A stretch of 64,000 bases of DNA from positions 192,001-256,000 of the forward strand of contig CP060223.1 in the NCBI GenBank assembly GCA_023898465.1. The letters run 5' to 3'. Made by a program: the position numbers and the translations under genes. The notes under the pieces are model-generated. The model saw nothing but the letters and a program-made list of their open reading frames with translations. It did not search any database and was not told the DNA's origin. Position 1 is the first letter of the stretch; each line of letters starts with the position of its first letter. Shown piece by piece: positions 8,160-25,912 of the stretch. The DNA is from Candidatus Nomurabacteria bacterium. GTDB taxonomy: Bacteria; Patescibacteriota; Patescibacteriia; HK-STAS-PATE-3.

Positions 8160-8678
8160 TTATTGCGAAAGGACTATTTTTTGAGCTGTACCTTTATTTA
8201 CTTGTCCAGCAGTATTTTTCGCTAATACTTGTATTTTATCACCAACTGATAGGGAAGAGATAGTAATGCTTTCCTCAGTGGCTGGAGCCGCATCAGTATA
8301 GTAGATTGTCCGTACAATAGCAGTATTTTCCTCAATCGTAAGGGTAATTTCTTCTCCATTTTCACCCTGCATAATGAGGGAATTACCTTGAATTCGTGCA
8401 ATAGTGCCACTAATTCCGATCATTTGACGAGCTTCATCGGAAATTTGCGATCCGGAAAGCCTTTCCAGCGCTCCCATACCTGTTACTTCATTTCCATTCG
8501 TGTCACTTTCATTTTGCTGTTGGCCCGGGAACACTAAGACGAGGACGGTAAGAATAGTCAGCACAATAGTAACGCCAATAACTGAACGCATAACCCTAAT
8601 CCAAGGGTCGTGCGCGTGTTGTCCTAGCTCGGTCTTTCGTATAATGTTTTGTGTCAGACCTGGAGTTTGTTTAGGCAT
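8160..8678 (-). CDS. Hypothetical membrane-anchored periplasmic/extracytoplasmic protein
   Basis: 172 aa; single N-terminal TM helix (VIGVTIVLTILTVLVLVF) followed by soluble beta-rich domain; no recognisable catalytic motif. Confidence 0.45.
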   Translation of the reverse strand: MPKQTPGLTQNIIRKTELGQHAHDPWIRVMRSVIGVTIVLTILTVLVLVFPGQQQNESDTNGNEVTGMGALERLSGSQISDEARQMIGISGTIARIQGNSLIMQGENGEEITLTIEENTAIVRTIYYTDAAPATEESITISSLSVGDKIQVLAKNTAGQVNKGTAQKIVLSQ

Positions 8679-8687: not shown

Positions 8688-8716
8688 TTGACGCTAGGTC
8701 GAGAAAGTGGTAGAAT
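8688..8716 (+). promoter_or_regulatory. Candidate sigma70 promoter for the surface-protein operon (TTGACG-17-TAGAAT)
   Basis: -35 TTGACG at 8688-8693, 17-nt spacer, -10 TAGAAT at 8711-8716; ~135 nt upstream of first operon ATG (8853), SD-like GGGGGAG at 8834-8840. Confidence 0.45.
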
Positions 8717-8852
8717 TTTTTTGTATTTTTTGGACGAGTGTAATTCGACCATCTGACCTACTCTATGATAGTATAGGTGTGTCGACAAGGCTCTGTCAAA
8801 GCCATTTTCCTTACTACAACAAAATTGTGCTACATCGGGGGAGTACATATTG

Positions 8853-9881
8853 ATGCGAATAAATAGTAATTCGCGTCGAAAAAAGCATATTAGTCTGCTC
8901 GTCATTCTTGGAGTGACGATGCTGTTTTTTGGTGTTTCCCAAGCATTTGCGTATTGGACTGAGCCTGATTTACCAGCCCCTGATTCCAGCGTGGGATATC
9001 CGATTTTCCAGGGCAGTGCAAGTGATATTTCTAGCCTTCTCAGTCAAACTAAGACCGGTGGACTCACTATTGGTCCTCCTGGAACTTTAGATATATCAGG
9101 TGGATTAAACACCAGCACTGTTTCTAGCACCTCAAATGTGGTTGTGGACAGTGGCCAGCTCTGTTTAAACGGTTTGTGTATTAGCTCATGGGGTGCGATT
9201 GCGGGAGGATATGTCCATCTGAGCCCTATTTCGGCTGATGCGGGTACGCTTTGGGTGCAGAGTAACAGTTCTGACCCGGCGCTAAACTCAAAGATTATTC
9301 CTAAAAGCAACTTCTTTGGAGTCCGCAGTATTGCCGCAGAGCCAAGTCCAGCTGCTCAGACTGCTGGAATAGCAGGTGATAGTTCAGATCAAGCCTCACC
9401 ACCCGGAGACACTCCCACCTATGGTATCGGTGGCGTGGCGGTTAACATCTCCTTCTGTGTTGGTGGAAGTAACGCCGGCGAGGTGTGTACGGCAAATAGC
9501 GATTGTACTTCAAATGTTTGTACGCCATACGATAAGAGTACGGGTGTATGGGGCTCAAATGGTGGAAATGCGAATGCCTGGGCTGGACGTTTCGATGGTC
9601 GGGTCGGTGTAGAAGGCGAACTTTGTATTAACGGCGATTGTCGCGATGTTTCAAACTGGGGCCCACCTGGTGGGTATAACGATTATGTGCGGGTACAAGA
9701 CAGCGGTGATCCTATTTTCCAAAGCGGTTTGGTAAAAATTCAAGGTACAGTGAAGAGTGGTCAGTTTGTTTTAGGTGCGCCGACTGCCTCCACCTCAATT
9801 TTGTTGACCTGCGGCGATAATCTTTGTAATTACGGTGAAAATGGCGAAAATATTGTAAATTGCGCGGAGGATTGTTCCTAA
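8853..9881 (+). CDS. Secreted Cys-containing surface protein, paralog A (N-domain + CGDG-type Cys knot)
   Basis: Signal peptide (…VSQAFA|YWTEPD); shares N-terminal module (QTKTG, ICLNGxC, YVxLS, AxAGxFxGxV) with 9883 and 15005 genes; ends with LTCGDNLCNYGENGENIVNCAEDCS knot. Confidence 0.6.
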   Translation: MRINSNSRRKKHISLLVILGVTMLFFGVSQAFAYWTEPDLPAPDSSVGYPIFQGSASDISSLLSQTKTGGLTIGPPGTLDISGGLNTSTVSSTSNVVVDSGQLCLNGLCISSWGAIAGGYVHLSPISADAGTLWVQSNSSDPALNSKIIPKSNFFGVRSIAAEPSPAAQTAGIAGDSSDQASPPGDTPTYGIGGVAVNISFCVGGSNAGEVCTANSDCTSNVCTPYDKSTGVWGSNGGNANAWAGRFDGRVGVEGELCINGDCRDVSNWGPPGGYNDYVRVQDSGDPIFQSGLVKIQGTVKSGQFVLGAPTASTSILLTCGDNLCNYGENGENIVNCAEDCS

Positions 9882-9882
9882 T

Positions 9883-11511
9883 ATGCGACATCTTTCCTCC
9901 ATTGGAACGCTGCTTCTCCTCATCATACTAGGGACGACTAATGCTTTGCCTGTGCATGCACAATGGGTCGAACCTGATACTGGTGAATTTCCTACCACCG
10001 GAGGAAGCACGCAAGCGCCTTTAAATACTTCCAACGTAGATCAAACAAAGACTGGATCATTCTTTTTACAGCGCGGCTTAACAGCGGAGAATGGAGTGAG
10101 TTCAAGCGGCGTACTCACGGTACAAAATGGTAATTTGCGTGTTACGCCAGACGGCGGCGGTCAAATTTGTCTCAACGGTGTATGTAAAAGCTCGTTAGAA
10201 ACAAGCTCGGATAACTATGTACGTTTGTCTGCGATTGATCCTGACCTCGGCTTTGTGCTACTCGGTGATGGCTCAACTAACGAAGGTTATTTAGACATTA
10301 GTTCGACCGAAACAATTGGCTTATACGGTATTGCCGGTGATCCTATAACAAAAAACACCTACGGTTTATTGGGTATTGCTGGTGCTGATGATGCTCCGTG
10401 GCCTAATTTTTCAGCCGGTGTTTTTGGTGAGGCTGGTGCAAATACAAGTCAATCGATTGGTTTATCTGGTGTGAGTCCCGATCCAGACGGCCCTGCCTAT
10501 GCAGCCTACTTTAAGGGGCGAGTGAATATTGTGGGATGTCTTGAGTGGAATGGAGGCACTTGCTTAAATGCGTGGCCAAGTGGATTACCAAGCGGTGAGT
10601 ATGTTGCGCTTCTTGAAGATGACGATGAGCCGCAAATAGGAAATATTGATTTATCGACCAGCTCGACAACAGTTTTTACTAGCGTTGTGTTAGGCGATGA
10701 CCCCTCGGGCTTAAGTTTACCTGTGACCTGTGGAGACGGTATTTGCAACAATAGCGAGAGTGGGCTTACTTGTGCGATCGATTGTTTCACCATTATCAAC
10801 CTCCAAGTTACCAATATTACGGATGGCAGTGCTACCGTTACCTGGCGTACGCTGATCAATGCTGATTCATATGTTGAGTATGGATTGACCAGCGATTTTG
10901 GTAGTGATGTATATGATGCCTCGATGGTGACGATGCACTCTTTGCAAATACATAGCTTGAATCATGATACGCATTACTATTTCCGGGTCCGCACAACGAC
11001 CGGCTCGGGCATTTCTCAAACCAGCTCGATACAATCATTCACAACCCTACTTGATCAGACAGCACCTAATGTGCCGGCTAATTTGCGAACTACAACCCCA
11101 GCACCAGATCGAGTGCCATTAGCGTGGTTCCACTCTCAGCTTGATAATCCGGGTGGATCTGGTTTTAAAGAGTTCATTGTTTATCGTGATGGATCACCCT
11201 ACGACACTACCGGTAATACCTACTATGTAGATTATTTCCCAGATCCTGGATATGACCACGTCTATTGGGTGACTGCTGTGGATAATCGTAACAATGAGTC
11301 AGAGGCTTCAAATCCACTTATCGTGCATGTACCAACTCCGTGTATTAGCGACCTTGACTGTACTGATCCGCAGTATCCAGTTTGTTATGGTGCATTGGGG
11401 TGTGGCACACCTCCGCCCGGAGGCTCGCCAGTCATGCTTAAAGAAATTCCCTTAGAGTATTCCCAATATCAGGATCCAGGTGGTTGGGATGAAGGAGGTG
11501 GCTGGTACTAA
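9883..11511 (+). CDS. Secreted surface protein, paralog B (N-domain + CGDG Cys knot + 2 FN3 domains + Cys-rich C-terminal tail)
   Basis: Signal peptide (…PVHA|QWVEPD); TCGDGICNNSESGLTCAIDC; FN3-like regions (…VTNITDGSATVTWRT… and …ANLRTTTPAPDRVPLAWF…YWVTAVDNRNNESEAS…); tail C…C…C…GGSPVMLKE. Confidence 0.6.
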   Translation: MRHLSSIGTLLLLIILGTTNALPVHAQWVEPDTGEFPTTGGSTQAPLNTSNVDQTKTGSFFLQRGLTAENGVSSSGVLTVQNGNLRVTPDGGGQICLNGVCKSSLETSSDNYVRLSAIDPDLGFVLLGDGSTNEGYLDISSTETIGLYGIAGDPITKNTYGLLGIAGADDAPWPNFSAGVFGEAGANTSQSIGLSGVSPDPDGPAYAAYFKGRVNIVGCLEWNGGTCLNAWPSGLPSGEYVALLEDDDEPQIGNIDLSTSSTTVFTSVVLGDDPSGLSLPVTCGDGICNNSESGLTCAIDCFTIINLQVTNITDGSATVTWRTLINADSYVEYGLTSDFGSDVYDASMVTMHSLQIHSLNHDTHYYFRVRTTTGSGISQTSSIQSFTTLLDQTAPNVPANLRTTTPAPDRVPLAWFHSQLDNPGGSGFKEFIVYRDGSPYDTTGNTYYVDYFPDPGYDHVYWVTAVDNRNNESEASNPLIVHVPTPCISDLDCTDPQYPVCYGALGCGTPPPGGSPVMLKEIPLEYSQYQDPGGWDEGGGWY

Positions 11512-14500
11512 TGCGCTATTTCCAACTTCATTTACGTAAACGTTTAACAAATCTGGTGACTTTTGGATTAGCCGTACTTATGCTCGGCGTACTTATGATT
11601 GCTAGCCGTTTCGTAGGTAACGCAAATGCAGAATTTGGACTGACACCACGGTGGTCAACTGAGCCTCATGTGGGAGATAGTTCAGTCTACATTGGTCCAT
11701 GGTCAGCACCGATACAAAACTCTGCTTCCAGTCGACTCTTTGTATATACCGATGATATTCCTGGCGGGGATCGCAATAATTACGTGTTCCGTGTGAACGA
11801 TGATGGTAGCTCAGTGTTAGGAACCAAACTCACTCCAGCGCTAAATGTGGGAACAAACCAGGGAAATAATTTTGGCTTTGTCTCAGATGGTATCGGCGGC
11901 GCTTACGTTGGTTGGACCTCTAACGTTATTGGGGTGGGGTATAACAACGTCATTGCTCGAGTAGGTTCAAGTGGTAATTTGCAGTGGGTGCGTGCAAACA
12001 ATGATGCCGTGGGTGTATCTGAAGTAAACTGGGGACAGTATTTAGCCTCAGACACGAGTGGCAATGCGCTTATTACTTACTTTAAGGGTAGTTCTGTGTG
12101 TGCGATGAAGCTTAGTCGAGCAACTGGTGTGAGTCAGTGGTCATCATCAGCCAATTGTACCGTGGGAGCTCGATCTGCCCGTGAAATTTATCACTCTAGT
12201 TCAAATGCCATTGTGCGAGGCATGATTTCTGATCAACAGGGCGGCATGATTGTGCTACATCGCGATGGCGCAGGAAGCATTTTGCATGCCACTCGAGTAA
12301 ATAGTACTGGTACCGTACTCTGGACAGTAAGCATTACCGATGCTACTGGTGGTTCTCCAACTGGATTAGAATTATTTGCCAAGACTCCAGATACTTTTTA
12401 TGCGATTTGGCGTAAGAGCTCATCAAACTTTATTCAAGCTTTTCACACCTCAGATGGAAGTGCTGCCTGGGTTAACCCCCTCCTCTTTGCTGAATCGAAT
12501 AGCTATGATCCATCAAGTCAATTTGATCGAGCAAAGTTTGTTTGGAGTGGAGCCGATGAGTTGGCCACCGCTTGGCGGCGAACATCTGATAGCGCCCTGG
12601 TAACGAATCGCATTAATGTGGAAACGGGCGCGAAGCGTTGGGCTTCCGACGTTGTAGTGACGACCGAAGCTGAGGATAATAACTATAAAGTGGCAGGGAC
12701 GGCTCAGGGAGTCACCTTCTTTGCCTATTGTCATGATAATGTGCCATCTGATTCAGCACTTTGTGAAATGCAGGGAGTGAGTGCGGGCGGAGCGCTTGTC
12801 TTTTCTGCTGACGGAGTTGATGTTCGACGGAGTAAACCAGATGACATGCAATTCGGTCTGCACACCGTTACTTCATCGACAAGTAACACATATTGTTTGG
12901 ATGAGGGCTTCCGACGTATTGGAGAATCTGTTGGTGCACAAAGTTATTGTCTGAATAGTTTACCTACAGTTTCAGATCCGATTTGTAGTATTGATAACGG
13001 TAGTAATTTTGTACTTTGTTCTGATGCACAACAGGGTTCAACGGTGAGTCACGTGCAAGTAACCTGTGACCCAGGAGATTTTGTCCCACTTTCAGAAGGT
13101 ATGGTAGCAAATACTAGTGGAGTGCACGAGGATTCTGCCTTTATTGAGGGTCGCTATGTGGTATATCGCTATCTTGACTCCGGTCCTCGATGGAAAGTGT
13201 ACGCGTACGATTTAGGTCCTGATCAGCAGTTTGGTACGGGTGATGACCTAGGCACAAAAATTTTGGTGGATGAGGGGAGTATTGATACCTACCCACAAGA
13301 TATTAAGAATGGAAGAATTTTATATTGGCGTTCAGCTGGTGGCACGGCCTCTTTGCGTTTTTATAACCTCAGTGATGACTCGATAGATCCAGGCACCTTA
13401 ACGAGCGTCGCCTTTTCTTCAATTTCTGGCTACGATGGACGCTACTTAGTCTATGCACCTAGCGGCACAACCAACTTGAGTGTGAAAGATTTAGGTGTGG
13501 ACGAGGTGCTCGGTACGGCTGATGACGGGGGAAGCACTCAGCTTAATTCGACGCCCATGGCAAACTATGCCCGGGTGAGTGGACGTTATGCAGTTGGGCA
13601 CTCCACCGGTGGTTTAGATGATATCTATCTCTTCGATCTTACTTCGATTACACAAACACCTGTATATAGCAATGCTTCGGTGCAAGCTGATGTGCCAGAT
13701 ATCCAAGGACGATATATTGCTTGGATGGATTTTCGTAATGATCCAAATGGGTACGATGATGGCAGCGGCACCAGCAATGGCGACATCTTCATTTATGACA
13801 TGGGTCCAGATGAACAATACGGCACCTCTGATGATATCGGTGAATCACAAATCAGCGCCTCGGCGAAAAAAGATAGCTCACCGCGGATTGCCGGTACAAA
13901 GATTCTCTGGCATCAAACACAGAATGGCGGCGCGTCCGATGCAAATCAAAACGTTATGATGTACGACCTCGGACCGGATGGTGAATATGGTACGGCCGAC
14001 GATACTTCAGAAACCCAATTAACCAATAGTCTTAATAATGAATACTGGCCACGCGGAGATGGTGAGAACATTGTTTGGTTAAGCGATCAAAACGGTCCAG
14101 CAAATACCGATATTTTTATTACACCAGCTGGAATTGGTGCTGCATCAATAAGCGAAGTTCGCTTCACTATGACTGCGCCATCTGGTACGCGTTATGTTGA
14201 TCAAGTAGCTGGTGAGGTGAATGCTTCAACGTATACTCTTTATTACCCTGAGCTCATTGACGAAGAGGGGCAGTGGACGGTACAAGCCACTTGTGAAGAT
14301 GTGGCTGGACAAACAGTGCAGCGTGAAAGTATTTGGGATGTTGGACCTTGGCCTTTTAGTGATCAGCAAAAACTTTCTGTCTACGACGGAGTAGCGCAAA
14401 TTTCTAAGAATTCCGGTGATACGATGGAGATAGGTAATGCTGGACGCGATATTACCTCGAATGGAAATATTTACATCCGCCCGAATAACAGTTACGCGGG

Positions 14501-15020
14501 AGCGTACTTCGAAGGCGTAGCTTCAACTGGATCGCAGCGACTCCATCTACCCTATGGTGTGCCAGGTCAACACACTGTCTTTGCCAAGGGCACAGGTACG
14601 GTAAATAGCGCAGATGGTGCGAGTGGAATTGCAGGAATTTTTACAGGACTCTCTAATAATGCAGGTGGCAGTGGGGTTTACGGTGATGTAATGAGTTGTG
14701 CAAGCAGCGGTGGATGTGCCGCAGGGTATTTCCAGGGTGGAGATCAGATTGGCCTCTACGCCTCGACAAACAATGCCTCTTTACCAGCCCTACGAGCAGA
14801 AAACGCTGCCACACCAAATGCATCTACGCTGAATATGTCCGCACTCTTTACGGGTAAGGTGCAAGTGAGTCAGGACCTCTCCGGTTCATTTAGCCCTGAT
14901 GCCTGTGTATGGGTGACGGTAGACGTGGGCGATACTGTGTGTCCAAACGAAGGCTTTGTCTTTGGTTACGATAGCACCAGTTTCGGAGTAGCTGATAAAC
15001 TTTATTGTTGCGGAAACTAA
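11511..15020 (+). CDS. Large secreted surface protein, paralog C (PQQ-like beta-propeller + repeated GPD/GTxDD blades + Ig-like modules + conserved C-terminal CC domain)
   Basis: 1169 aa; signal peptide; PQQ-like repeats (…SGNLQWVRANND…, …GTVLWTVSITD…); four YDLGPDxxYGTxDD repeats; C-terminal ~210 aa homologous to 16671 and 17461 genes, ending …KLYCCGN. Confidence 0.6.
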   Translation: MRYFQLHLRKRLTNLVTFGLAVLMLGVLMIASRFVGNANAEFGLTPRWSTEPHVGDSSVYIGPWSAPIQNSASSRLFVYTDDIPGGDRNNYVFRVNDDGSSVLGTKLTPALNVGTNQGNNFGFVSDGIGGAYVGWTSNVIGVGYNNVIARVGSSGNLQWVRANNDAVGVSEVNWGQYLASDTSGNALITYFKGSSVCAMKLSRATGVSQWSSSANCTVGARSAREIYHSSSNAIVRGMISDQQGGMIVLHRDGAGSILHATRVNSTGTVLWTVSITDATGGSPTGLELFAKTPDTFYAIWRKSSSNFIQAFHTSDGSAAWVNPLLFAESNSYDPSSQFDRAKFVWSGADELATAWRRTSDSALVTNRINVETGAKRWASDVVVTTEAEDNNYKVAGTAQGVTFFAYCHDNVPSDSALCEMQGVSAGGALVFSADGVDVRRSKPDDMQFGLHTVTSSTSNTYCLDEGFRRIGESVGAQSYCLNSLPTVSDPICSIDNGSNFVLCSDAQQGSTVSHVQVTCDPGDFVPLSEGMVANTSGVHEDSAFIEGRYVVYRYLDSGPRWKVYAYDLGPDQQFGTGDDLGTKILVDEGSIDTYPQDIKNGRILYWRSAGGTASLRFYNLSDDSIDPGTLTSVAFSSISGYDGRYLVYAPSGTTNLSVKDLGVDEVLGTADDGGSTQLNSTPMANYARVSGRYAVGHSTGGLDDIYLFDLTSITQTPVYSNASVQADVPDIQGRYIAWMDFRNDPNGYDDGSGTSNGDIFIYDMGPDEQYGTSDDIGESQISASAKKDSSPRIAGTKILWHQTQNGGASDANQNVMMYDLGPDGEYGTADDTSETQLTNSLNNEYWPRGDGENIVWLSDQNGPANTDIFITPAGIGAASISEVRFTMTAPSGTRYVDQVAGEVNASTYTLYYPELIDEEGQWTVQATCEDVAGQTVQRESIWDVGPWPFSDQQKLSVYDGVAQISKNSGDTMEIGNAGRDITSNGNIYIRPNNSYAGAYFEGVASTGSQRLHLPYGVPGQHTVFAKGTGTVNSADGASGIAGIFTGLSNNAGGSGVYGDVMSCASSGGCAAGYFQGGDQIGLYASTNNASLPALRAENAATPNASTLNMSALFTGKVQVSQDLSGSFSPDACVWVTVDVGDTVCPNEGFVFGYDSTSFGVADKLYCCGN

Positions 15021-16681
15021 TGCATTCAAAACTACGCATCTCAATTTTCTTTCTCGCTACAATCATTGTAGGAACCTTTGCTTTCAGGGCGATGGCTTTT
15101 ATCGAGCCGGATGATTTCCCGCCCAGTGATACAACGAGCGCACCAGTATTGACTGGTCCACAGGATCAGACTCGTCAGGGACCCCTGACAGTGCAAGGCA
15201 ACGTTAGCGCTTCCGGACCTTTAATTACTCGTGATAGTGAAATCGTTACCTCCGGTGATGTTACGGTGAGCGGTGGTGCTTCAATTTGTTTGAATGGAGA
15301 TTGTATTAACGCATGGACAGCGGCACTTGGTGATTTTGTTCGTCTCTCGCCACCGTCATCTGACGACGGATATATTCACTTGCAAGGTGGGGCTACTTTC
15401 CAAGCTGCCACTGACGCTGACTTTGCTCTATATTCTCGCGCCATTGCTCCGACAGCTAGTGCGAGTTATGGCTTTTATGGCAAGTCTTGGACTGGTCCAG
15501 TTACGAATAACTATAGCTACGGCGTACTTGGAGTGGCAGCTCATGAGGGAATAAATCCCGGAGCCCTAGCTTATGGCATTTTTGGCTGGAATGGAGATAA
15601 CCTCAATGCCTATGCAGGCTATTTCACTGGGAATGTTCAGTTAGTGAATAACTCGGAACTTTGTCTGACTGATGGTTTCACTATTGACTGTCGAACCACT
15701 TGGCCAAATGGAGCACCGGGCGAAGAATTTCTCCTCTTACAAAATACTTGGCCTACTTCAAGTCAGATTGGAAACACCGCGGTGAGTGGAAATGCGCAAT
15801 TTGCGAATGCGCTGTTGGGTGATCCGGGCGCCGGCACTCTTACCTGTGGCGACGGATTTTGTTCCGAGGATGCGATCAGTTGTCCAATTGACTGCCCGAC
15901 GATAACGAACATCGATGCGGAGTGGCTGACCTCTAGCAGCGCCCAGTTTACCTGGACTTCAAATACGACGATGACCTCAGTAGTTCAGTTTGGTCTTTCA
16001 GATCTCTATGGTGGACAAGACATTGACGGTTCATATGTCACAAGTCATTCAATCACCATTGAGGGCCTAGATAGCGATCAGGATTATCATTACCGCGTTG
16101 GTGGTCTGACGGAAAATTCTGGTGCAGCTGTGTTTTCCTCAGATCAAATATTGTCAGCCAGCGTGGTTGATATTGATCCTCCGCCAGTTCCGAGTGGATT
16201 AGTACTTGATGTGCATATTCCACCTCCATCTCCAACAGAAATCATCGACTTAACCTGGGCTCATGATTTGAGCGATAACCCAGTGGGTGGAAGTGGTTTT
16301 AAAGAATTTCATATCTATCGATTAGACTGGTCAGTTGGTCCTCCCTTTGTAATGATTGGCACCACCACCGATTTGAATTTCATTGATGATTCAGGGGATT
16401 TGAGTCAGACAAATGATTATACCTATAGTGTCACTGCAGTGGATAATAATGGCAATGAGTCAGATCCTTTCGAGCGAGCAGTGCACATTCCAGCGAGGTG
16501 TTCTTTTGATGTGGAATGTGGCGTTGATCCGGGATATCCTTTCTGCTGTACATGGAATGAAGGTGATAAAGCCTGTAGCGCAACTTCTTGTAAAGGAGGC
16601 GGGTCTCCAATTATGTTGAAGGAAGACCCTCCGCCATTAGGGCCACCTCCATGTAACGGTCCTGATTGTTATGGACCATAA
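15005..16681 (+). CDS. Secreted surface protein, paralog D (N-domain + CGDG knot + 2 FN3 + Cys-rich tail)
   Basis: Signal peptide (…FRAMA|FIEPDD); ICLNGDC, TCGDGFCSEDAISCPIDC, FN3 regions, tail …CCTWNEGDKACSATSCKGGGSPIMLKE…; alternative start at 15020 overlapping upstream stop. Confidence 0.6.
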   Translation: MLRKLMHSKLRISIFFLATIIVGTFAFRAMAFIEPDDFPPSDTTSAPVLTGPQDQTRQGPLTVQGNVSASGPLITRDSEIVTSGDVTVSGGASICLNGDCINAWTAALGDFVRLSPPSSDDGYIHLQGGATFQAATDADFALYSRAIAPTASASYGFYGKSWTGPVTNNYSYGVLGVAAHEGINPGALAYGIFGWNGDNLNAYAGYFTGNVQLVNNSELCLTDGFTIDCRTTWPNGAPGEEFLLLQNTWPTSSQIGNTAVSGNAQFANALLGDPGAGTLTCGDGFCSEDAISCPIDCPTITNIDAEWLTSSSAQFTWTSNTTMTSVVQFGLSDLYGGQDIDGSYVTSHSITIEGLDSDQDYHYRVGGLTENSGAAVFSSDQILSASVVDIDPPPVPSGLVLDVHIPPPSPTEIIDLTWAHDLSDNPVGGSGFKEFHIYRLDWSVGPPFVMIGTTTDLNFIDDSGDLSQTNDYTYSVTAVDNNGNESDPFERAVHIPARCSFDVECGVDPGYPFCCTWNEGDKACSATSCKGGGSPIMLKEDPPPLGPPPCNGPDCYGP

Positions 16682-17459
16682 GTATATGCAAATGCAAAAA
16701 CATCAATTCGTACTAATATTTGGAACTGTGCTTTTCTCTGCTCTCTTCCTGGTCAGTAGTGCCTTGCCTGAAAAAGGGTATGCGGCTACACCTTTTGGAG
16801 GAAACAGCAATAAGCGCTTGTCTATTTATAATGGTACTTTATTACTTGATGGTAGCGCACAATTGCGCTTAGGTAATGCCGGTCGCGATATTCAAGCAAG
16901 CGGGACTCTGTATCTGCGTCCTGATGGAAGCGCGCGTGGCTCCTTCTTCAGCGGTGTTACCAATGATGTTGGTCAGCGCCTTTCATTAACTGGCGGCATT
17001 AGTGGCAGTGATACTATCCAAGCCTCCTGGATCGGAACGAATGGAGTAGACGAAACTCGAGGCGCGGTCACTGGTTATTTCCACGGCGCTCCTGATAGTG
17101 CGGTTGGTGCCGCAATTTTTGGTGAAGTACAATCATGTGGTGTTGGGCAAACCTGTTACGCTGGTTACTTTGCCGGTGGCCAAAGCACAGGAGTGCAAAC
17201 GTATACGGCGACAAATCCAAACGGTGGAGCTACTCCTGCTTTGCAAGTATTAAATGCTGATGCAAATGGCGTAGCCGCTTCCTTTACCGGTAATGTGCAG
17301 ACAAATCGGCTTATTCTCGATAATAATACTCGTTCTGCGTGTACCTGGGAGTCGGTAAGCGGTGCAGAATTAGTCTGCCCTAGCGGAAAATTATTAGCCG
17401 GTGTCCGAGCGAGTAATACAGACCCAGTCATTTCTGATATTTATTGTTGTGAGCTGTAA
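16671..17459 (+). CDS. Secreted protein E: signal peptide + stand-alone copy of the conserved C-terminal 'CC' domain
   Basis: 262 aa; aligns over its whole mature length to C-termini of 11511 and 17461 genes (LGNAGRDI…, …SCGVGQTCYAGYF…, …CTW…VCPSG…IYCCEL). Confidence 0.6.
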   Translation: MDHKYMQMQKHQFVLIFGTVLFSALFLVSSALPEKGYAATPFGGNSNKRLSIYNGTLLLDGSAQLRLGNAGRDIQASGTLYLRPDGSARGSFFSGVTNDVGQRLSLTGGISGSDTIQASWIGTNGVDETRGAVTGYFHGAPDSAVGAAIFGEVQSCGVGQTCYAGYFAGGQSTGVQTYTATNPNGGATPALQVLNADANGVAASFTGNVQTNRLILDNNTRSACTWESVSGAELVCPSGKLLAGVRASNTDPVISDIYCCEL

Positions 17460-17460
17460 T

Positions 17461-19716
17461 ATGCAATTCCCGCGATTACATAAACTACACATTTTAAGCG
17501 CGATGTTCATCGCAGTGCTTGGTTTAGGTGTCGCAGTTGGTGCCTACACCTATTCAAACTGGACTCGACAGCAAAAAGGAGCCGAGAATACGAGCGCTAG
17601 TACTGATAATGGTCCAACCGCGAACGTGGTGCAGGGGACGGTGTCGGGTTGTGTAAGCGGTACCACGCAAACGGTTGATTGGACGATGGTACGAGATGGA
17701 GAGCTTATCGTTGTTGCACATTCTGAGTCACAGGAAAAACTTTGCATTTATGATTATAACAGCGTTGCCACTTCACCGATTCGACAATATGACATGACTC
17801 AATCCGAGCGAAGTCCGGTTGTGGTAGGGGATGTGCTCTATCGAGTCAAAAAAGGCTTAAGTCCAATTCAAGTAGAGGCACGTTCACTCATCGATGGATC
17901 AGTGCTGTGGACAAAAACGATTAGCTCAACTGCGGTGGGTAGTACTTACAATGTAATAACCGCAGCTAATGGCAATCTCTATATCGGAGCGAAATTTAAT
18001 GGATCCGAGCAGAGAGTGCTCGCACTGCAGCAGATTGATGGTCAGCTGTTATGGATGCGCACTATTGAGCCAAGCTTTGGCTTTTCGACCAGCGTTGAAC
18101 AGCTTGGCGCCTTAGCAGTTAGTAGTGATCAAGTGTTTATCCAATTTGTTGAAGGTTCGCTGTCTGATGGTCGGGTTGGTTATCGTGCGCTTAATGCGAG
18201 TACTGGAGCCGTGAACTGGACTGCCGGTCCTTATGGTTCCGGAGTGATTCGGACCAGAGCGTCACTAATTTACGCTGATAATGCTATTTATGCTGCGCCT
18301 GATGCATATATTTCTCTCAGTTCAGCTACTGGAAATCAAACCTGGAATCAAGCAATGGCAGCTACGAATGAGGCCTTAAGTATCGCCTATAGCAGCACTA
18401 AGGTGTACTACTCCGAGCGACGAAGCACGCAATACGCCTATCTCGCTCGAAGTGCTATAAACGGCGGTTTGTCATGGACAGCTGGAAATTATAACGGCTC
18501 TATTGGTGATGGTCCCCTTGTCGTAGTAAATAACAACTTCCTATATCACTGCGCAAATAGTACCTTGCGAGGCATTTCCACTGTGACTGGTTTTGTTACG
18601 TTCACGGGAGTTGCGCCCACCTTCTGCAATGCCGCTGCAGTATATAATGGAATATTGTATGTGAATGGTAATGCCGGCTCAGTAGACCAAGGTAAAGTGC
18701 GTTTAATCGCAAATACTTTGCCCGCAAGCGCTACAACAACAGTTGGTGTGCCGACATGTAGCATTGATAATGGTTCTAATTACGTTGATTGCGCGAACTT
18801 ACAATATGGCGCGATTGTGACACATGCTCGGACAACCTGTACGAGTACTGCAGGAGTAAAAGAGGTGCAGTTCACCTTAACAGGGCCCGCCGGTACACAA
18901 TACTCCTCAGTAAAAGCACAAACAGTCGTCGGTGCTACCTATACTACACATGCGCCGGGAACGCTCGTAGGTAGTGGGCAATGGACCCTGACGGCAAAGT
19001 GCGTGAATAGCATTAATGAGAGTACATCGAATCAAAAGATTTGGACTGTTGGATCTGCTCCAAGTGAAGGATCTCAGAAGCTTTCTATTTACGAAGGAAG
19101 CGCTCGCTTTACTGATGGTGAGACTATGGAAGCGGGTGCGCTCAGCGGAGATGCAAATATCGACTGGATTGGCTCTGATAGTATTTATGTTCGTCCAAAC
19201 ACTTCAAACGGTTCTTCATTCTTCCAAGGTGTTTCAGCACTTGATCGGCAAAGCCTCTATTTAAGCGGCGGCATTAATGCGAAACCAAGCTTGGAAGCAG
19301 TTGGTTTAGGACAAAATGGAGTACCGTACCTAGGCTCTGCTATTGCCTCAACTTTTGATGGGGCTAGTTTTTCCTCCGGTGGCGGTGCAATTTACGGAGG
19401 AGTGAGTAGTTGCGGGGCAGGGAAAACTTGCTACGCAGGATACTTCAATAACAGCTCCGAAACTGGCTATGGTATTCTCGTTACGAATAACTCCGCGTCG
19501 CAACCTACGCTTCGGGCGGAAAATTTAGCCGGTGGCACTGCAGCCAATTTCGTGGGCGTAGCTAAGGTGAGTGGCGATCTACAGGCAGATAATAATACGG
19601 TGAATAGTTGTACCTGGACACCAGTGAGTGCAAAAGAATGTCCGGCTGGGACTGTCGCCTCTGGTATGCGATTTAGCGGAGGAGTGGTGAGCGAATATAA
19701 TTGTTGTAGTCTCTAA
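17461..19716 (+). CDS. Large secreted surface protein, paralog F (PQQ-like beta-propeller + Ig-like modules + C-terminal CC domain)
   Basis: Start taken at ATG 17461 just after upstream stop (ORF track begins 17401); PQQ-like repeats (…DGSVLWTKTISS…, …DGQLLWMRTIEP…); Ig-like modules paralogous to 11511 gene (CSIDNGSNYVDC…); tail …EYNCCSL. Confidence 0.6.
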   Translation: MQFPRLHKLHILSAMFIAVLGLGVAVGAYTYSNWTRQQKGAENTSASTDNGPTANVVQGTVSGCVSGTTQTVDWTMVRDGELIVVAHSESQEKLCIYDYNSVATSPIRQYDMTQSERSPVVVGDVLYRVKKGLSPIQVEARSLIDGSVLWTKTISSTAVGSTYNVITAANGNLYIGAKFNGSEQRVLALQQIDGQLLWMRTIEPSFGFSTSVEQLGALAVSSDQVFIQFVEGSLSDGRVGYRALNASTGAVNWTAGPYGSGVIRTRASLIYADNAIYAAPDAYISLSSATGNQTWNQAMAATNEALSIAYSSTKVYYSERRSTQYAYLARSAINGGLSWTAGNYNGSIGDGPLVVVNNNFLYHCANSTLRGISTVTGFVTFTGVAPTFCNAAAVYNGILYVNGNAGSVDQGKVRLIANTLPASATTTVGVPTCSIDNGSNYVDCANLQYGAIVTHARTTCTSTAGVKEVQFTLTGPAGTQYSSVKAQTVVGATYTTHAPGTLVGSGQWTLTAKCVNSINESTSNQKIWTVGSAPSEGSQKLSIYEGSARFTDGETMEAGALSGDANIDWIGSDSIYVRPNTSNGSSFFQGVSALDRQSLYLSGGINAKPSLEAVGLGQNGVPYLGSAIASTFDGASFSSGGGAIYGGVSSCGAGKTCYAGYFNNSSETGYGILVTNNSASQPTLRAENLAGGTAANFVGVAKVSGDLQADNNTVNSCTWTPVSAKECPAGTVASGMRFSGGVVSEYNCCSL

Positions 19717-19717
19717 T

Positions 19718-22700
19718 ATGGCATTTGTACAACGACATTCACGAGCACTATTTATCAGTATATTCGCAACACTTGTTATAGTGGCTGCTGGACTTCTTAT
19801 TGCAAAGGTTAGTTTTGCTGGGCTCGAGTGGGAGCCGCAAAAACCTCCAGAAGTATATCAGAATAACAGTAGCATCGACTTCTATAAAGTTGATTTCCAA
19901 CAAAACCCCAGCGATAATAAATACTATGGTTGGGTGGTAGGTGAGGACTTAAGCGGTAAACAATCAAGCCTCCTTTACTTTAATGGCGCTTTTTGGAAAT
20001 CAATTACCGACGACGGTTTGGGTGCGGGGTCGACATCGGACCTCTTTGATGTTTCCGCTGTTTGGAATTCAGATATTGATCAGTATCTTGTTTGGGCAGT
20101 AGGGGAAAATCAAGCGCTCTGGTATTTAACTGACAGCGAGACTGTGTGTAATAGTGAAGCTATCCCATGTCCTGATAGTCCAGCTGGAGCTGTGACTTTA
20201 AATTCGGTTGAAGGTGCTTGGTATAGCGGAGATGATAAAGTTGCCTTTTTTGTAGGTGATAACGGGCACATTTATCATGCAGTGGCTGATGATTACCAAA
20301 GCGCATTCGCCTACACCGCAGCATTTGCTACGAGCGGGACCATCCGCGATATTGATTCTTTTGACGCTGCACATACTTGGGCAGTATCAAGTGATGGCAA
20401 GATATATTTTAATAGCGATTATCTGACAAACTCGTGGGTGCAACAAGCCTCTTTCCCAGGCATTGATTTTACAGGAGTGTCAGCGGCAGATGCCAGCCAC
20501 GTATGGGCTTCGGCAATTAACGGCACAAAAGGTCAAATTTATTTTTACGACGGGTCCACCTGGTCGCTCCAATTCACTACAGTGCTTGATATTCCGCTTC
20601 ATGATGTGAGTGCATTTTATAATCCTACTTTATCTATTTATAATGCCTTTGCGGTTGGTGATATTGATTCCTCTACAGGCAACGGAGGTGTTTATCAATA
20701 TAATGGTACAATTTGGGAACGGCAGGATTCAAATAATAATGGTGAAGTATTACGCGGCATTTCTGCTGCCAGCCTTATTGAGATACGAGCCGTTGGTGCG
20801 AACACCACACTCTTAACCAGCTCACCGGGAAATATATTTGGTTGGATTTGGCTAGGATCAAGCACAAGTAATGGAAGTGGCGATGCGCTGGGATGGGGAA
20901 GCGGAAGCTGCGCTAATCTTGATAGTTGTGAAAGTGCTGGCTTTACTTACGGCGTAAACATCCGCCGCAGTGGCACCAGTCAAGGTGCTTTGTCTGGTTA
21001 CTTTTGGCTAGGGAATGCTGATCCGGATGCTTATATTCCAAATGACTGTGACACCGATCCAGGCGTCGAAGCTTGTCAATCTAATTCGAGCATTAGCTGC
21101 ACTACTGATTTTGAATGTCGTTGCGCTATTAATTCAGCAGCTTGTTTTTCAACTGGTTGGATGTCGTTTAACAAAAAAGGCTCGGATGGTGTGACTGATG
21201 AGGCTGGCACACCTCCAGCTGCACCGTACAATGATGGTGCGCAAAACTATATTGCTCGATTTGATGCAAAGACGGGTAAGGTAACTGGCTGGGCTCGTTT
21301 ACTTTCCTTATACGAAGATCCAAGCACTGGTGGCTGGATTCGTTTGCGAGGGAATGCAGTTACTCCGAATGTAGGTGACTTACCAGTCCGAGACTGTAAA
21401 AATTGTGGCAAATTCTGCAGTCTCGACACTACGTATAAGTGTACAGTTGACGCTGACTGTAATGTAGACGCAGACGGTGATGGAACAGATGAAAACTACG
21501 GCCCGTGTAATGTGAGTGTTTGTAAGATTTGTAATGCTTTAAATGATGAAACAATCGTTTCTGCAAACATGTGCTCAAATACCGGCGGCACCTCATGTAC
21601 GCGACGTTGTGAGCTTAACAACAGTATTACCTGTACCGATGATGCAGATTGTATAGGATTTGGCTCATGTGTGAATGAGACTTTTTGTGATTCTTGTGTG
21701 ACCTATGACCAATATGGTGTAGCGATTGATGACGCAACTGGTAAGATTACCGGCTATGCTTGGAGTGGCGCGTCTACTACATATGGTCAACTTGGCTGGA
21801 TTGATTTTAATCGAGCAAACTATTATAGCCAGGCTTGGTTACAGACCCAATTTGGGAATATCTACGCTCAAGCTGATATCGGTAGCGTTGGTACGCCAGC
21901 TGCTCCAGAGGGTAAATGTAATGCGACATACGTGATTAGTGCAGCTGGTACCATCACTAACTTCTGTTCGCGCTACGAAGAAATCGATCCAACCGCCCCG
22001 CCAGGGGACTACACCACTCGCCCCTTCATCCAGCAAAACTACGATGAAATTTATTATCCAACCGAGGCAAATAACTATACGAACGTCCTAGGAAAATTGG
22101 ATCCAGATGCTCTGGTGCAGGATGTGGGCGCTGGAAAAAATAAATATGGCGATGAAATCATTACGGTAAACAGCGATGCTGATTTACTTGACCTTGGCTT
22201 GTGTGATGCTGACGGAGTAACGCTTGATGGCAAGGTATATCATGTGGTTGGAAATCTCAGTATCGGTGTCTGTAATCCTGGTAGCGGTGATGTTACTGAA
22301 TTGATTATTAAGAATTCTTCACTCGCCAGTGGGTCAGGGACAATAGTGGTTGATGGTAATCTCACCATTGATATGAATATAAGCTACGAACAAAGTTCAA
22401 TCTCTAATATTAGAGATTTGGCCTCCCTGGGTGTGATGGTGAAGAAAAATATGATAGTGACTGGTGATGTAGATTCAATCGTCGGCTCCTATATCGTCTT
22501 TGGAACCGATGAGACAGAAGCTAATAAATTTAGTGGAATTAAGATTGAAAACTCCTTAATCGAACGCTCCTTTAGTGCGCAAGGTCTCATGATCGCCCGA
22601 GGCTTCAAATTCGAGCGCACATATCGTGGCACCTTAATCGATCCACAACCAGCTGAGCAGGTGGTATACGATGGACGGGTGATTGCAAATACGCCGCCAG

Positions 22701-22756
22701 GATTCCGTGATTTTGCGAAAGTCTTACCAGTTATTCGAGAAACCATACCTTTTTAA
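19718..22756 (+). CDS. Large membrane-anchored/secreted surface protein G (BNR/Ycf48-like beta-propeller, Cys-rich repeats, beta-helix-like C-terminus)
   Basis: 1012 aa; N-terminal TM/signal (…AKVSFA|GLEWEPQ); repeats of type YxxWAVGxxG; Cys-dense region with repeated DxxTGK[VI]TG[WY]A units; no catalytic motif recognised. Confidence 0.55.
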   Translation: MAFVQRHSRALFISIFATLVIVAAGLLIAKVSFAGLEWEPQKPPEVYQNNSSIDFYKVDFQQNPSDNKYYGWVVGEDLSGKQSSLLYFNGAFWKSITDDGLGAGSTSDLFDVSAVWNSDIDQYLVWAVGENQALWYLTDSETVCNSEAIPCPDSPAGAVTLNSVEGAWYSGDDKVAFFVGDNGHIYHAVADDYQSAFAYTAAFATSGTIRDIDSFDAAHTWAVSSDGKIYFNSDYLTNSWVQQASFPGIDFTGVSAADASHVWASAINGTKGQIYFYDGSTWSLQFTTVLDIPLHDVSAFYNPTLSIYNAFAVGDIDSSTGNGGVYQYNGTIWERQDSNNNGEVLRGISAASLIEIRAVGANTTLLTSSPGNIFGWIWLGSSTSNGSGDALGWGSGSCANLDSCESAGFTYGVNIRRSGTSQGALSGYFWLGNADPDAYIPNDCDTDPGVEACQSNSSISCTTDFECRCAINSAACFSTGWMSFNKKGSDGVTDEAGTPPAAPYNDGAQNYIARFDAKTGKVTGWARLLSLYEDPSTGGWIRLRGNAVTPNVGDLPVRDCKNCGKFCSLDTTYKCTVDADCNVDADGDGTDENYGPCNVSVCKICNALNDETIVSANMCSNTGGTSCTRRCELNNSITCTDDADCIGFGSCVNETFCDSCVTYDQYGVAIDDATGKITGYAWSGASTTYGQLGWIDFNRANYYSQAWLQTQFGNIYAQADIGSVGTPAAPEGKCNATYVISAAGTITNFCSRYEEIDPTAPPGDYTTRPFIQQNYDEIYYPTEANNYTNVLGKLDPDALVQDVGAGKNKYGDEIITVNSDADLLDLGLCDADGVTLDGKVYHVVGNLSIGVCNPGSGDVTELIIKNSSLASGSGTIVVDGNLTIDMNISYEQSSISNIRDLASLGVMVKKNMIVTGDVDSIVGSYIVFGTDETEANKFSGIKIENSLIERSFSAQGLMIARGFKFERTYRGTLIDPQPAEQVVYDGRVIANTPPGFRDFAKVLPVIRETIPF

Positions 22757-22762: not shown

Positions 22763-22791
22763 TTGCGACAGAGTAAGAAAAATGCTATAAT
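22763..22791 (+). promoter_or_regulatory. Candidate sigma70 promoter of the pilM operon (TTGCGA-17-TATAAT)
   Basis: -35 TTGCGA 22763-22768, 17-nt spacer, -10 TATAAT 22786-22791, 47 nt upstream of pilM ATG. Confidence 0.45.
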
Positions 22792-22838: not shown

Positions 22839-23927
22839 ATGGGTTTATTTAACAAAAAAGAAAGCTATCTCGGGATTGATATCGGCACTTCTAGTATTAA
22901 AGTGTCTGAATTCAGAAACGAAGAAGGTCGTCCGCGCTTGTTAAGTTATGGCTTTGTCGAGCAACCAAGCGAGGTTTTAAAAAGCGATTCACCCGAAGCA
23001 ATCCAGCAAGTGGTGACTACCTTGTTAGGTGTGTTTAAAAAGGGCCATATGCAAAGCCGCAAAGTGGTTTCGGCTCTGCCTAGCTACGCAGTTTTCACAT
23101 CGATTTTGAGCTTGCCAGTAATGCCGAAGAAGGATTTATACTCGGCAATTCGCTGGGAGGCAAAAAAAATCGTCCCAATGTCCCTCGATGAAATGGTGCT
23201 AGACTGGCGCTTACTCCATGACCCAGAAGAGGCGACTGATGAAAAAGGTAAAAAGAGCAAAAAGGATCAAATAAGCAGTGGAGGTCCTAAAAATACCCGT
23301 GTGCTCATTACGGCAGCTCCAAAAAACTTAGTTAAACGTTACATTGATATATTTAAACTGGCTGAGCTCGAAATCGTCAGCCTAGAAACCGAGTCATTTG
23401 CCCTTGTTCGTTCACTTCTTGGACGAGATAATTCCACAGTGATGGTGGTGGATATCGGGGCAATTGCCACGGAAATAAGCGTTATACTCGATGGTATACC
23501 TTTTCTCAATCGAAGTATCGACGTAGGGGGAGAAACTATTACGAAATCAATAGCCAATAGTCTCAATATTGATGCAGAACGCGCTGAGCAAATTAAGCGC
23601 GACTTTGGCGTTATGAGTGGGCCGAGCACGAGTCAGATTCCTCGGGTTATTGAATTTGTCATGCAGAATATCGTGAATGAGATTCGCTATATTTTATCGA
23701 TGTATCAAAATCAGGGCGAAAAGCCAATTGAAAAAATTGTGTTGTCTGGTGGATCAGCCTTCCTGCCCAATTTGCCTAGCTATCTCGAGCAGATGATTAA
23801 GCTCAAATGCTATATTGGAGATCCGTGGGCTCGAGTAGTCTACCCAGTAGAATTAAAGCCAGTGCTAGATGAGATTGGACCACGCTTTGCCGTGGCAAAT
23901 GGTCTAGCCATGCGTGAAATTGTGTAA
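22839..23927 (+). CDS. pilM: Type IV pilus assembly protein PilM (actin-like ATPase fold)
   Basis: 362 aa; N-terminal LGIDIGTSSIKVSEF and overall PilM/FtsA-like architecture. Confidence 0.85.
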   Translation: MGLFNKKESYLGIDIGTSSIKVSEFRNEEGRPRLLSYGFVEQPSEVLKSDSPEAIQQVVTTLLGVFKKGHMQSRKVVSALPSYAVFTSILSLPVMPKKDLYSAIRWEAKKIVPMSLDEMVLDWRLLHDPEEATDEKGKKSKKDQISSGGPKNTRVLITAAPKNLVKRYIDIFKLAELEIVSLETESFALVRSLLGRDNSTVMVVDIGAIATEISVILDGIPFLNRSIDVGGETITKSIANSLNIDAERAEQIKRDFGVMSGPSTSQIPRVIEFVMQNIVNEIRYILSMYQNQGEKPIEKIVLSGGSAFLPNLPSYLEQMIKLKCYIGDPWARVVYPVELKPVLDEIGPRFAVANGLAMREIV

Positions 23928-23930
23928 TCT

Positions 23931-25244: not shown

Positions 25245-25909
25245 AAATCTTCGGCAAAAGCTTCACTGAATTCTTAATTGAGCAATACCGCTATGTATTA
25301 GTGGCGGTTGCGCTTATACTTGCTTTGGTCGGCTATCTGGTGTTTATTGGACCGGAATTGCAAGAAGTCCGTCGTTTCGGTACAGCTGACTTAAAAGATG
25401 AGAAATCGAAATTAGAAGATCGGAAAACCTATTTGACTCGTTTACAGGGCATGCTTGATGCCTATAGTACGCTGAATCAAAATAGTTTAAGCGAGTTAGA
25501 GGGGGTGCTACCGACCTATGAAGATATCCCTGACCTCTTCATTATTGTAGAGGACTTGGCCAAGCAGAGTGGCTTATCACTCAGTTCTGTTTCTATTAAT
25601 CCGGCGAATTTAGAATCCGAATCAAGCGCAGCCGGTGCAAGTACAACATCGCTGAGTCAGTTGGCTAAATCAAAGAACTTAAAAGCCTTTGACATCTCAG
25701 TGACGGCTATTAATGGTACTTCATACGAAGATTTCAAAGACTTTATTACGAATATCGAAAATAGCAACCGCCTGTTTGATGTGCGATCTATGCAGTTTAC
25801 GCCGGAGCCGCGTCAGTCAGCTGACCGTACGAGTGAGACCTCAGCTGCTACGACTCCGTACTCAATCAACTTGCGCACTTATTATATTGACGGTGAGGAG
25901 GCTTCCTAA
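25241..25909 (+). CDS. pilO: PilO-like pilus assembly protein
   Basis: 222 aa; N-terminal TM helix, coiled-coil, then PilO-like domain; position between pilN and pilB. Confidence 0.5.
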   Translation: MKIFGKSFTEFLIEQYRYVLVAVALILALVGYLVFIGPELQEVRRFGTADLKDEKSKLEDRKTYLTRLQGMLDAYSTLNQNSLSELEGVLPTYEDIPDLFIIVEDLAKQSGLSLSSVSINPANLESESSAAGASTTSLSQLAKSKNLKAFDISVTAINGTSYEDFKDFITNIENSNRLFDVRSMQFTPEPRQSADRTSETSAATTPYSINLRTYYIDGEEAS

Positions 25910-25912
25910 GCT

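Follow-up and report, generated by a model that had tools for sequence, protein, structure and literature searches.

Seven exported proteins encoded ahead of a type IV pilus locus

The DNA analysed here is a stretch of 64,000 nucleotides (nt) from the genome of a Candidatus Nomurabacteria bacterium, an ultra-small member of the Patescibacteria (contig CP060223.1, positions 192,001 to 256,000), hereafter the window, and our subject is a set of seven plus-strand genes, A to G, that lie within it immediately upstream of the genes for a type IV pilus (Table 1). An earlier note, made from the sequence alone, had described these genes as a single operon of modular, cysteine-rich secreted proteins. 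The tight coupling is plain between 8853 and 22756, where stops and starts touch or overlap: the junctions from A to G are TAAT-ATG or TAATG overlaps, all seven stop codons are TAA, and GGAGG-like ribosome-binding sites precede several of the genes. The start coordinate given at that time, 8688, holds as a promoter-like site and not as the beginning of coding sequence, since the first coding sequence (CDS) starts at 8850/8853. In the NCBI annotation, the locus tags H6760_00855-H6760_00885 carry the product names 'hypothetical' or FN3-domain, and A (H6760_00855), B, E, and G were matched to them. The GC content is ~46% throughout the region.

The set is placed, as had been proposed, between a housekeeping block and pilM. 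On one side lies a divergent block comprising a gene for a 172-residue protein, LemA, an M48 peptidase, a UPF0259-like gene, and ClpB; on the other, a gap of 82 nt separates G from pilM, which opens a complete monoderm-type type IV pilus locus extending to about 38034. This locus is real (22839-38034) and holds PilM, PilO, PilB, PilT, PilC, and PilD together with 6-8 N_methyl pilins.

All seven proteins (7/7) begin with a basic segment followed by a hydrophobic stretch and an AxA-type site. Cysteine makes up 2.30% of A-G as compared to 0.55% in the 44 other genes of the window, an approximately 4-fold enrichment, and each of the seven proteins contains an even number of cysteines (F being counted from its ATG). 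An even and enriched cysteine content therefore fits disulfide-bonded exported proteins, and the signal peptides and cysteine richness reported earlier are both borne out. The locus is a genuine set of genes for exported, disulfide-rich, modular proteins.

The TTGACG-17-T(G)GTAGAAT element ahead of A is largely kept in related loci (L001 and L003, most strongly in L001), and the TTGC.A-17-TGCTATAAT element of the G-pilM gap is conserved in four loci (L004, L006, and L013 among those named). Across the region, the counts from the promoter and terminator scans did not exceed shuffled expectation, and we report only these two intergenic sites that are conserved in relatives; the scan found no terminator-like site in the G-pilM gap. 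Because the TGCTATAAT element in that gap is conserved, A-G appears to be transcribed as a unit of its own, from which read-through into pilM may occur.

Table 1. Features of the seven-gene set and of the adjoining pilus locus (window positions; aa, amino acids)
Feature	Position	Description
Promoter-like site upstream of A	8688..8716 (+)	TTGACG-17-TAGAAT, extended -10 (TG); consensus match only
Gene A	8853-9881 (+)	342 aa; signal, mature N-terminus YWTEP, QTKTG, two CLNGxC...W motifs
TCGDNLC...CAEDC knot of A	9807-9875
Gene B	9883-11511 (+)	542 aa; A-type N-domain, aa 1-303
CGDG knot of B	10726-10785
FN3 of B	10795-11046
Distal part of B	11053-11325	probable second FN3; a Cys-rich tail with GGSPVMLKE follows at 11400-11508
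Gene C	11511-15020 (+)	1169 aa; behind the signal, a propeller-like N-terminal region and a small Ig-like module with Cys
Propeller repeats of C	about 13128-14120	TolB/Msarc-type
E-type domain of C	14346-15017	C-terminal; ends CCGN (15006-15017)
Gene D	15020-16681 (+)	553 aa from ATG, upstream TTG at 15005; N-domain, Cys-rich tail with GGSPIMLKE
CGDG knot of D	15842-15895
FN3 of D	15902-16117
Gene E	16671-17459 (+)	262 aa, NCBI call starts 16692 (255 aa); signal peptide and E-type domain alone; ends CCEL (17445-17456)
Gene F	17461-19716 (+)	751 aa from ATG, longer GTG ORF (open reading frame) from 17401 overlaps E; signal or anchor, then a propeller-like region and the Cys Ig-like module also present in C
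E-type domain of F	19072-19713	ends CCSL (19702-19713)
Gene G	19718-22756 (+)	signal, propeller-like part, GW units, predicted solenoid domain
N-terminal part of G	19718..20824 (+)	signal (mature end LEWEP) and probable Ycf48/BNR-like beta-propeller; variable part of family
Middle part of G	20825..21703 (+)	GW hairpin units (G[WY]xW...GWIxF), Cys-dense inserts; conserved core
C-terminal domain of G	21704..22756 (+)	last 350 aa; predicted ice-binding-protein/ComZ-type beta-solenoid ending in conserved ...PAEQVVYDGRVIANTPPGFRDFAKVLPVIRETIPF
Aromatic-x-E-P motif	A 8955-8966; B 9964-9975; C 11652-11666; D 15098-15109; G 19826-19840
Promoter-like site, G-pilM gap	22763..22791 (+)	TTGCGA-17-TATAAT with TG
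pilM	22839-23927 (+)
PilN-position gene	23931-25244 (+)	437 aa; no Pfam match
pilO	25241-25909 (+)
pilB	26203-27984 (+)
Response regulator	27953-28420 (+)	single-domain
pilT	28410-29498 (+)
pilC	29505-30713 (+)
Pilin genes	starts 31553, 32082, 33307 (+)
Prepilin peptidase pilD	34335-35099 (+)
Minor-pilin-like genes	starts 35077, 35758, 36330, possibly 37159 (+)	to 38034; candidate partners of G

Protein G and the gene order before pilM

The first ~370 residues of G align repeatedly by BLASTP to a Ycf48/BNR-like propeller protein (P0013), supporting the BNR-like propeller that had been assigned to this protein. Pfam PSII_BNR gives no match in G and falls below threshold in two members of its family, P0062 (22.9 bits) and P0031. 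The DxxTGK[VI]TG[WY]A repeat noted earlier occurs twice in G.

Word-based homologue searches returned few relatives (9, 9, and 6) and suggested a lineage-private operon, a picture that was overturned for G by an exhaustive phmmer search with residues ~370-1012 (~640 residues). This search identified at least 553 clusters at 50% identity, 123 of them with E ≤ 1e-30. The full C-terminal domain is present in 145 of the 150 top representatives, and in every one of these 145 proteins it ends no more than four residues from the protein end. Members of the family range from 350 to 2300 residues and carry Sec-type signals; a class III pilin motif occurs in none of 133 full-length members. Short members (450-600 residues) are made up of a signal, roughly four GW hairpin units, and the C-terminal domain, and longer ones add FG-GAP, Ycf48-like, or unrecognised domains at the N terminus. 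The few named members come from Kerfeldbacteria and 'Patescibacteria group' metagenome-assembled genomes, and the family's proteins are at present all labelled 'hypothetical'.

The core of G has no sequence match in Pfam, NCBIfam, or the PDB, and PDB sequence searches with G and with four profiles returned nothing meaningful. DUF7305 (PF23981; gathering threshold 27 bits) matches nine of 42 family members below threshold, with a best E value of 3e-4 and at most 18.4 bits among individually scored members, and does not match G itself. The family ends in a highly conserved peptide held in fixed register, [PG][AS]Ex[IV]xYDGRxxxNxPPG[LF]xD[FL]xxxLPx[IW][RQ][EQ]xxP, the final proline of which is the last residue of the protein in 64 of 111 cases.

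An AlphaFold2 model of the last 350 residues of G, built from a 42-sequence alignment, reached a predicted local distance difference test (pLDDT) score of 87.8 and a predicted template-modelling (pTM) score of 0.83, with low confidence for the very last residues. Foldseek searches of this model against the PDB and BFVD returned the same top set with weak scores, the closest structure being the tip pilin domain of ComZ from Thermus thermophilus (PDB 6QVI). As modelled, the C-terminal domain of G is a ~340-residue β-solenoid of the ComZ/ice-binding type, and the likeness is at the level of the fold only: sequence comparison detected no relation of G to ComZ or to DUF3494. The ice-binding proteins of DUF3494 (PF11999) share this fold-level likeness, without a Pfam match at E ≤ 0.1 to G or among the 42 family members scanned; the G domain differs from them in being larger, in lying in a pilus operon, and in carrying the extra conserved C-terminal peptide.

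ComZ consists of a pilin-like domain with an inserted ice-binding-like solenoid, binds DNA, and has been argued to sit at the pilus tip with PilA2 (PMC6561018). With ComZ as its best structural match, G could be imagined as the extracellular DNA receptor of a competence pilus used for nucleotide scavenging, A-F being unrelated surface proteins that happen to be co-located. Members of the Candidate Phyla Radiation (CPR) depend on DNA uptake, ComEA is detected in only 31% of their genomes, and an alternative DNA-binding mechanism has been suggested for them (PMC6744442). The DNA-binding lysines of ComZ, however, are situated between the pilin domain and the solenoid (PMC6561018), whereas a pilin domain is absent from G; where ComZ is a pilin, G has a cleavable-type Sec signal followed by a probable β-propeller, with no N_methyl/pilin motif. 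In addition, hypervariable propeller and FG-GAP domains at the N terminus would be unexpected in a DNA receptor, and Pfam detects no nucleic-acid-binding domain in G, so that we regard this role as quite unlikely.

A solenoid of this kind could also belong to a right-handed β-helix enzyme, such as a polysaccharide lyase or depolymerase resembling a phage tailspike, that opens the host envelope where the pilus makes contact. The absence of any glycosidase or lyase family match in Pfam, NCBIfam, and PHROGs and the lack of relatives in viral contigs make such an enzyme very improbable. A viral origin of the domain likewise found no support, as no relative was present in IMG/VR contigs and no significant match in BFVD.

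To place the family in its genomic setting, we scanned metagenomes with an alignment of the G C-terminal domain, called ORFs in the resulting 80 loci, and scored these against the window proteins. Counted from the G-like genes, pilM is the next gene in all 75 of the loci with at least 700 nt of downstream sequence, at a median gap of 62 nt; the remaining five of the 80 run out of sequence. The order beyond pilM (loci L017-L096) is a PilN-position gene, pilO, and pilB, usually followed by a response regulator gene, pilT, and pilC. The 71 near-full-length PilM proteins from these loci fall into 63 groups at 95% identity and 17 at 60%, and the most distant pairs share as little as 30%; the genes upstream of the G-like gene vary by locus, comprising the LemA block, RNase HI, or others. 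Because the PilM lineages are diverse and the upstream neighbours differ, the adjacency is conserved beyond general synteny.

The linkage is also not unique to the genome studied here, which removes one of the two findings that the earlier note had named as refuting its reading. A G-type gene stands immediately 5' of pilM in three close relatives and in two Kerfeldbacteria genomes (the order is seen in L004, L006, L012, and L013), and in both Kerfeldbacteria loci, the gene adjoining pilM matches G residues ~370-1012 and not the propeller. Since the G family lies directly before type IV pilus genes in every informative locus, this large unnamed family points to an undescribed pilus-associated adhesin. 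We consider it highly probable that G has some direct functional tie to the pilus.

One such tie would make the G family a fixed envelope part of the secretin-less CPR pilus, a collar or guide spanning the wall or S-layer, with A-F as the surrounding envelope or S-layer-like proteins. In keeping with this arrangement, the G-like gene heads the pilM-pilN-pilO block, where alignment-complex genes cluster, and the GW units plus solenoid form the constant core, of which the minimal members of 450-600 residues consist alone. A survey of CPR protein families found a type IV pilus set of PilB, PilT, PilC, PilM, PilN, PilO, PilD, and pilins from which PilQ is absent, and names no G-like partner (PMC6744442). 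The highly variable N-terminal additions, which account for lengths of 350 to 2300 residues, suit a target binder better than a collar, no transmembrane or wall-binding domain is recognised by Pfam or NCBIfam, and the closest structure is a tip pilin domain. A fixed envelope role thus appears fairly unlikely to us.

Genes A to F, a variable neighbourhood of G

An N-terminal domain of ~300 residues is common to A, B, and D (all-against-all BLASTP, E 6e-21 to 5e-28), and B and D are full-length paralogues (E 1e-76, 35% identity). The sharing of modules among the operon proteins thus lies far beyond chance. In the A/B/D alignment, the QTKTG/QTRQG, ICLNGxC, and TCGD[GN]xC...CxxDC motifs are invariant, all three proteins carrying them, as the earlier note had it. 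The same note gave B and D paired FN3 domains, of which one per protein stands. In B, Pfam Pur_ac_phosph_N scores 37.4 bits (cut-off 30) and fn3 24.5 bits (cut-off 25), and in D, the two score 28.2 and 22.4 bits, just below the cut-offs. The second domain is weakly supported, by a match to PHROG 1696 (E 0.008).

Relatives of A, B, and D occur well beyond the window. An iterated A/B/D profile matches both upstream genes of L012 as well as genes upstream of G-like genes in L027, L029, L031, L036, L050, L058, L064, and L067. With the HMMER filters off and a small database, it also matches the first ~100 residues of upstream proteins in L018, L030, L032, L075, and L089 (E 1e-7 to 1e-14). Altogether, about half of the loci have a member of the A/B/D-type family close in front of the G-like gene. 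It combines a constant N-terminal module of ~100 residues (signal, W-x-E/G-P, Q-x-K-x-G, CLNGxC..W) with variable distal parts, which end in a dockerin in the L029 relative and in Peptidase_S74 in that of L030 (E 3e-11, 43.8 bits, cut-off 22).

The Peptidase_S74 intramolecular chaperone is a hallmark of trimeric phage tail fibres and spikes. With its conserved attachment end and variable distal modules, the A/B/D family resembles such fibres; A, B, and D themselves differ in that they lack Peptidase_S74 (Pfam), end in the CGDG knot, FN3, and Cys-rich tails, and are chromosomal, and the scan with the G C-terminal domain turned up no viral relatives.

Proteins C, E, and F share a C-terminal domain of ~220 residues (BLASTP E 4e-37 to 3e-46) that the earlier note had not described. 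These E-type domains end with two adjacent cysteines plus two residues, and they turned up only in closer relatives of the window. C and F also have in common a small Cys-bracketed module (BLASTP). PQQ-like propellers had been proposed for both proteins; PF13360 has no match in C or F at E ≤ 0.1, and the precomputed PF13360 matches are to orthologues, that of F in L004 and, weakly, that of C in L006. C itself matches two repeats of TIGR04275 (beta_prop_Msarc) with 38.2 bits and E 8e-10, below the cut-off of 85 bits. Comparison by hhalign detected no relation among the A/B/D N-terminal domain, the E-type domain, and the C-terminal domain of G.

Five of the proteins carry an aromatic-x-E-P-type motif early in the mature sequence: YWTEP in A, QWVEP in B, RWSTEP in C, FIEP in D, and LEWEP in G. 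In C, the motif lies ~10 residues further on than in A, B, D, and G, where it comes directly behind the predicted cleavage site. Elsewhere, W-x-[EG]-P stands behind the signal peptide in half (18/36) of the complete genes directly upstream of G-like genes, and x-[FWL]-E follows the signal in 38 of 69 long G-family proteins, where shuffling predicts 8.6. This shared peptide may serve in docking or sorting. At the other end of the proteins, the Cys-rich tails of B and D (11400-11508 and 16540-16678) carry a conserved GGSP[VI]MLKE motif; these tails, like the CC-x-x ends of C, E, and F, may act in sorting or anchoring.

The whole A-G arrangement, with the same upstream block, recurs in GCA_043827125, GCA_040960315, GCA_964637345, and a Logan contig, and pilM lies downstream wherever the contig reaches, that of GCA_964637345 ending early. 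The nearest species representatives by PilM are Candidatus Kerfeldbacteria at 62% identity. Among orthologues, A-F are 37-49% identical and the G propeller 37-42%, as compared to 52-56% for the G core and 62-80% for ClpB, LemA, PilM, PilB, PilT, and PilC. Domain content also changes: the F orthologue of L004 (6411-9998) has 1195 residues with an inserted C-type propeller, that of L006 (9213-10004) has 263 residues and only the E-type domain, and the C orthologue of L098 (3920-6313) has 797 residues against 1169 in the window. These comparisons of predicted proteins indicate recent domain shuffling inside the cassette.

The slot between LemA and pilM is itself variable. L009 and L011 hold other A-type/E-type combinations, and the two Kerfeldbacteria hold three and four genes. 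In L014 (PilM 48% identical), LemA and pilM are directly divergent (9055-11025). Because this slot contains no A-G-type gene and no G-family gene lies within 10 kb, some lineages must either do without the cassette or have it at another site. The pilus linkage claimed for the operon as a whole divides by gene: it is strong for G, from the 75 metagenome loci, the close relatives, and Kerfeldbacteria; moderate for A, B, and D; and weak for C, E, and F, whose common domain occurs in close relatives only. In our view, the set comprises a single conserved partner of the pilus, G, and a variable group of lineage-specific accessory genes.

The number of A-F genes, which runs from 0 to 6 between loci, and the conserved promoter-like element that pilM has to itself would also agree with seven free-standing adhesins, fibres, or surface-layer proteins that have no physical link to the pilus and are co-regulated with it for host attachment. 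CPR genomes commonly encode large, Cys-rich extracellular proteins to which a part in attachment is ascribed (PMC4736985); those described, for example in Peribacteria, resemble the present set in signal, cysteine content, size, strain variation, and presumed role, whereas the description is generic and defines no family, pilM link, or solenoid. Co-regulation alone, however, fails to explain the strict adjacency of G and pilM across short gaps while PilM falls to 30% identity and the upstream genes change, and it leaves the fixed C-terminal peptide unexplained. We consider a purely free-standing layer unlikely.

A candidate non-pilin partner of a secretin-less pilus

Profile searches with the seven proteins in Pfam, NCBIfam, and PHROGs yielded FN3-type matches and one sub-threshold propeller repeat, with none in A, E, F, or G, and no module matched an S-layer, glycosidase, or other characterised family in these databases or among PDB sequences, so that the other refuting finding named in the earlier note did not arise. 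The opinion that this is not a described system stands within the profile and literature searches made; the literature that we searched, the coverage of which is incomplete, yielded no account of the family or of its tie to pilM. S-layer, glycosidase, and sortase-anchored (LPXTG) pilus models were dropped, there being no matching profile and no recognisable sorting signal.

G may nevertheless be compared with several known proteins. It can be likened to PilY1/PilC and MshQ in being a large non-pilin protein encoded in a pilus locus, with a Sec signal and an exchangeable N-terminal domain ahead of a constant C-terminal one, and with its extreme C terminus conserved. By β-strand complementation, the final 6-10 residues of PilC/PilY1 and MshQ fill out the fold of a minor pilin of the PilK type, which starts assembly and holds the adhesin on the tip (PMC12918778). 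The PilY1 C-terminal domain, in contrast, is a β-propeller with no sequence or fold relation to the β-solenoid of G; moreover, G is encoded before pilM and not after the minor pilins, and its organism is a monoderm without secretin. Within the Patescibacteria, PilX1 and PilX2 of Nanosynbacter lyticus TM7x are likewise large proteins of a type IV pilus locus that carry sizeable extra domains and lack a PilD-type signal; they have been proposed to be PilY1-like, and PilX2 is needed for host binding (PMC12206443). By description, these are lollipop pilin-like proteins with a C-terminal jelly-roll or RCC1 propeller, whereas G has its propeller at the N terminus and its solenoid at the C terminus. 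G is not a member of the PilY1, ComZ-type pilin, or DUF3494 families and at most works like them.

In the model that we prefer, A-G would be one transcription unit of Sec-exported, disulfide-stabilised surface proteins heading the type IV pilus locus of a monoderm CPR cell. G would work like PilY1/PilC or ComZ as a non-pilin partner of the pilus. Its constant C-terminal module and tail would dock on the pilus, most likely on the minor-pilin initiation complex (35077-38034), and its variable N-terminal module would contact the target, be it the surface of a host cell or perhaps DNA. Next to it, A, B, and D make up the second family, whose N-terminal module is constant and whose distal parts vary and look fibre-like, and C, E, and F are a lineage-restricted family of propeller-like proteins joined to a common C-terminal domain; together, A-F would constitute a fast-diverging accessory set of adhesins or fibres expressed alongside G. 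We advance this tip-adhesin mechanism tentatively, as something just short of an even chance, and the adhesin role of the cassette is putative throughout.

Several observations weigh against the model. We infer pilus binding by G from gene order and architecture, and the conserved promoter-like element before pilM suggests separate transcription. Starting from the pilM side, a G-like neighbour is present in two of three PilM-selected genomes, the figure of 75 of 75 being counted from G-like genes, and the L014 pilM is without a G-like gene within 10 kb. G lacks both the pilin-like N-terminal helix of ComZ and the propeller domain of PilY1, and its gene adjoins pilM, with the minor pilins 12 kb downstream. 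The likeness to ComZ is confined to the fold, and solenoids of this kind are also found in ice-binding proteins unrelated to pili. As for A, B, and D, the suggestion of fibres derives from the S74 domain of one relative and from motifs; the AlphaFold2 monomer model of A is poor (pLDDT 38.8, from a 10-sequence alignment), which could reflect an obligate oligomeric fibre and equally a shallow alignment; and in L073 and L074, two of the five loci that run out of sequence, an A-like ORF lies behind the G-like gene before the contig end.

The Patescibacteria account for a large part of bacterial diversity and lead a life attached to other microorganisms, and their type IV pili are the best-supported device for attachment and DNA uptake. 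To our knowledge, target recognition by the pilus is understood only for a few cultured Saccharibacteria. The G family is a concrete candidate for this function in uncultured lineages, and the variable accessory genes A-F are candidate host-range determinants. Carried further, the G family might be the missing PilY1-equivalent of the secretin-less pili in much of the Patescibacteria, docking through its solenoid and C-terminal peptide and forming with the W-x-E/G-P fibre family a hypervariable host-recognition cassette that sets which hosts or DNA can be captured; we view this larger proposal as possible, if somewhat doubtful.

Other features of the window deserve mention. Within the pilus locus, a homologue of the PilN-position gene stands behind PilM in most of the 75 metagenome loci, and its product (23931-25244) resembles a PilN that is divergent and enlarged, a form typical of these lineages. 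The response regulator gene between pilB and pilT recurs at that position in many metagenome loci, a hint that the motor of the CPR pilus receives a conserved regulatory signal. On the opposite side of the set, the gene for the 172-residue protein (8160-8678, minus strand), divergent from A, has no family match; it keeps its position adjoining LemA in related loci and diverges fast, at 23-32% identity.

Finally, the window contains a GC-rich island at 46000-48000 (GC 0.569 as compared to about 0.46 elsewhere in the window), which has no Rfam match at E ≤ 0.1. An ORF of 420 residues within it (46254-47516, plus strand) has no Pfam match; its predicted product has a hydrophobic N-terminal segment and a tail rich in Ala, Thr, and Pro. 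The island is overlapped by a long ORF in antisense orientation.

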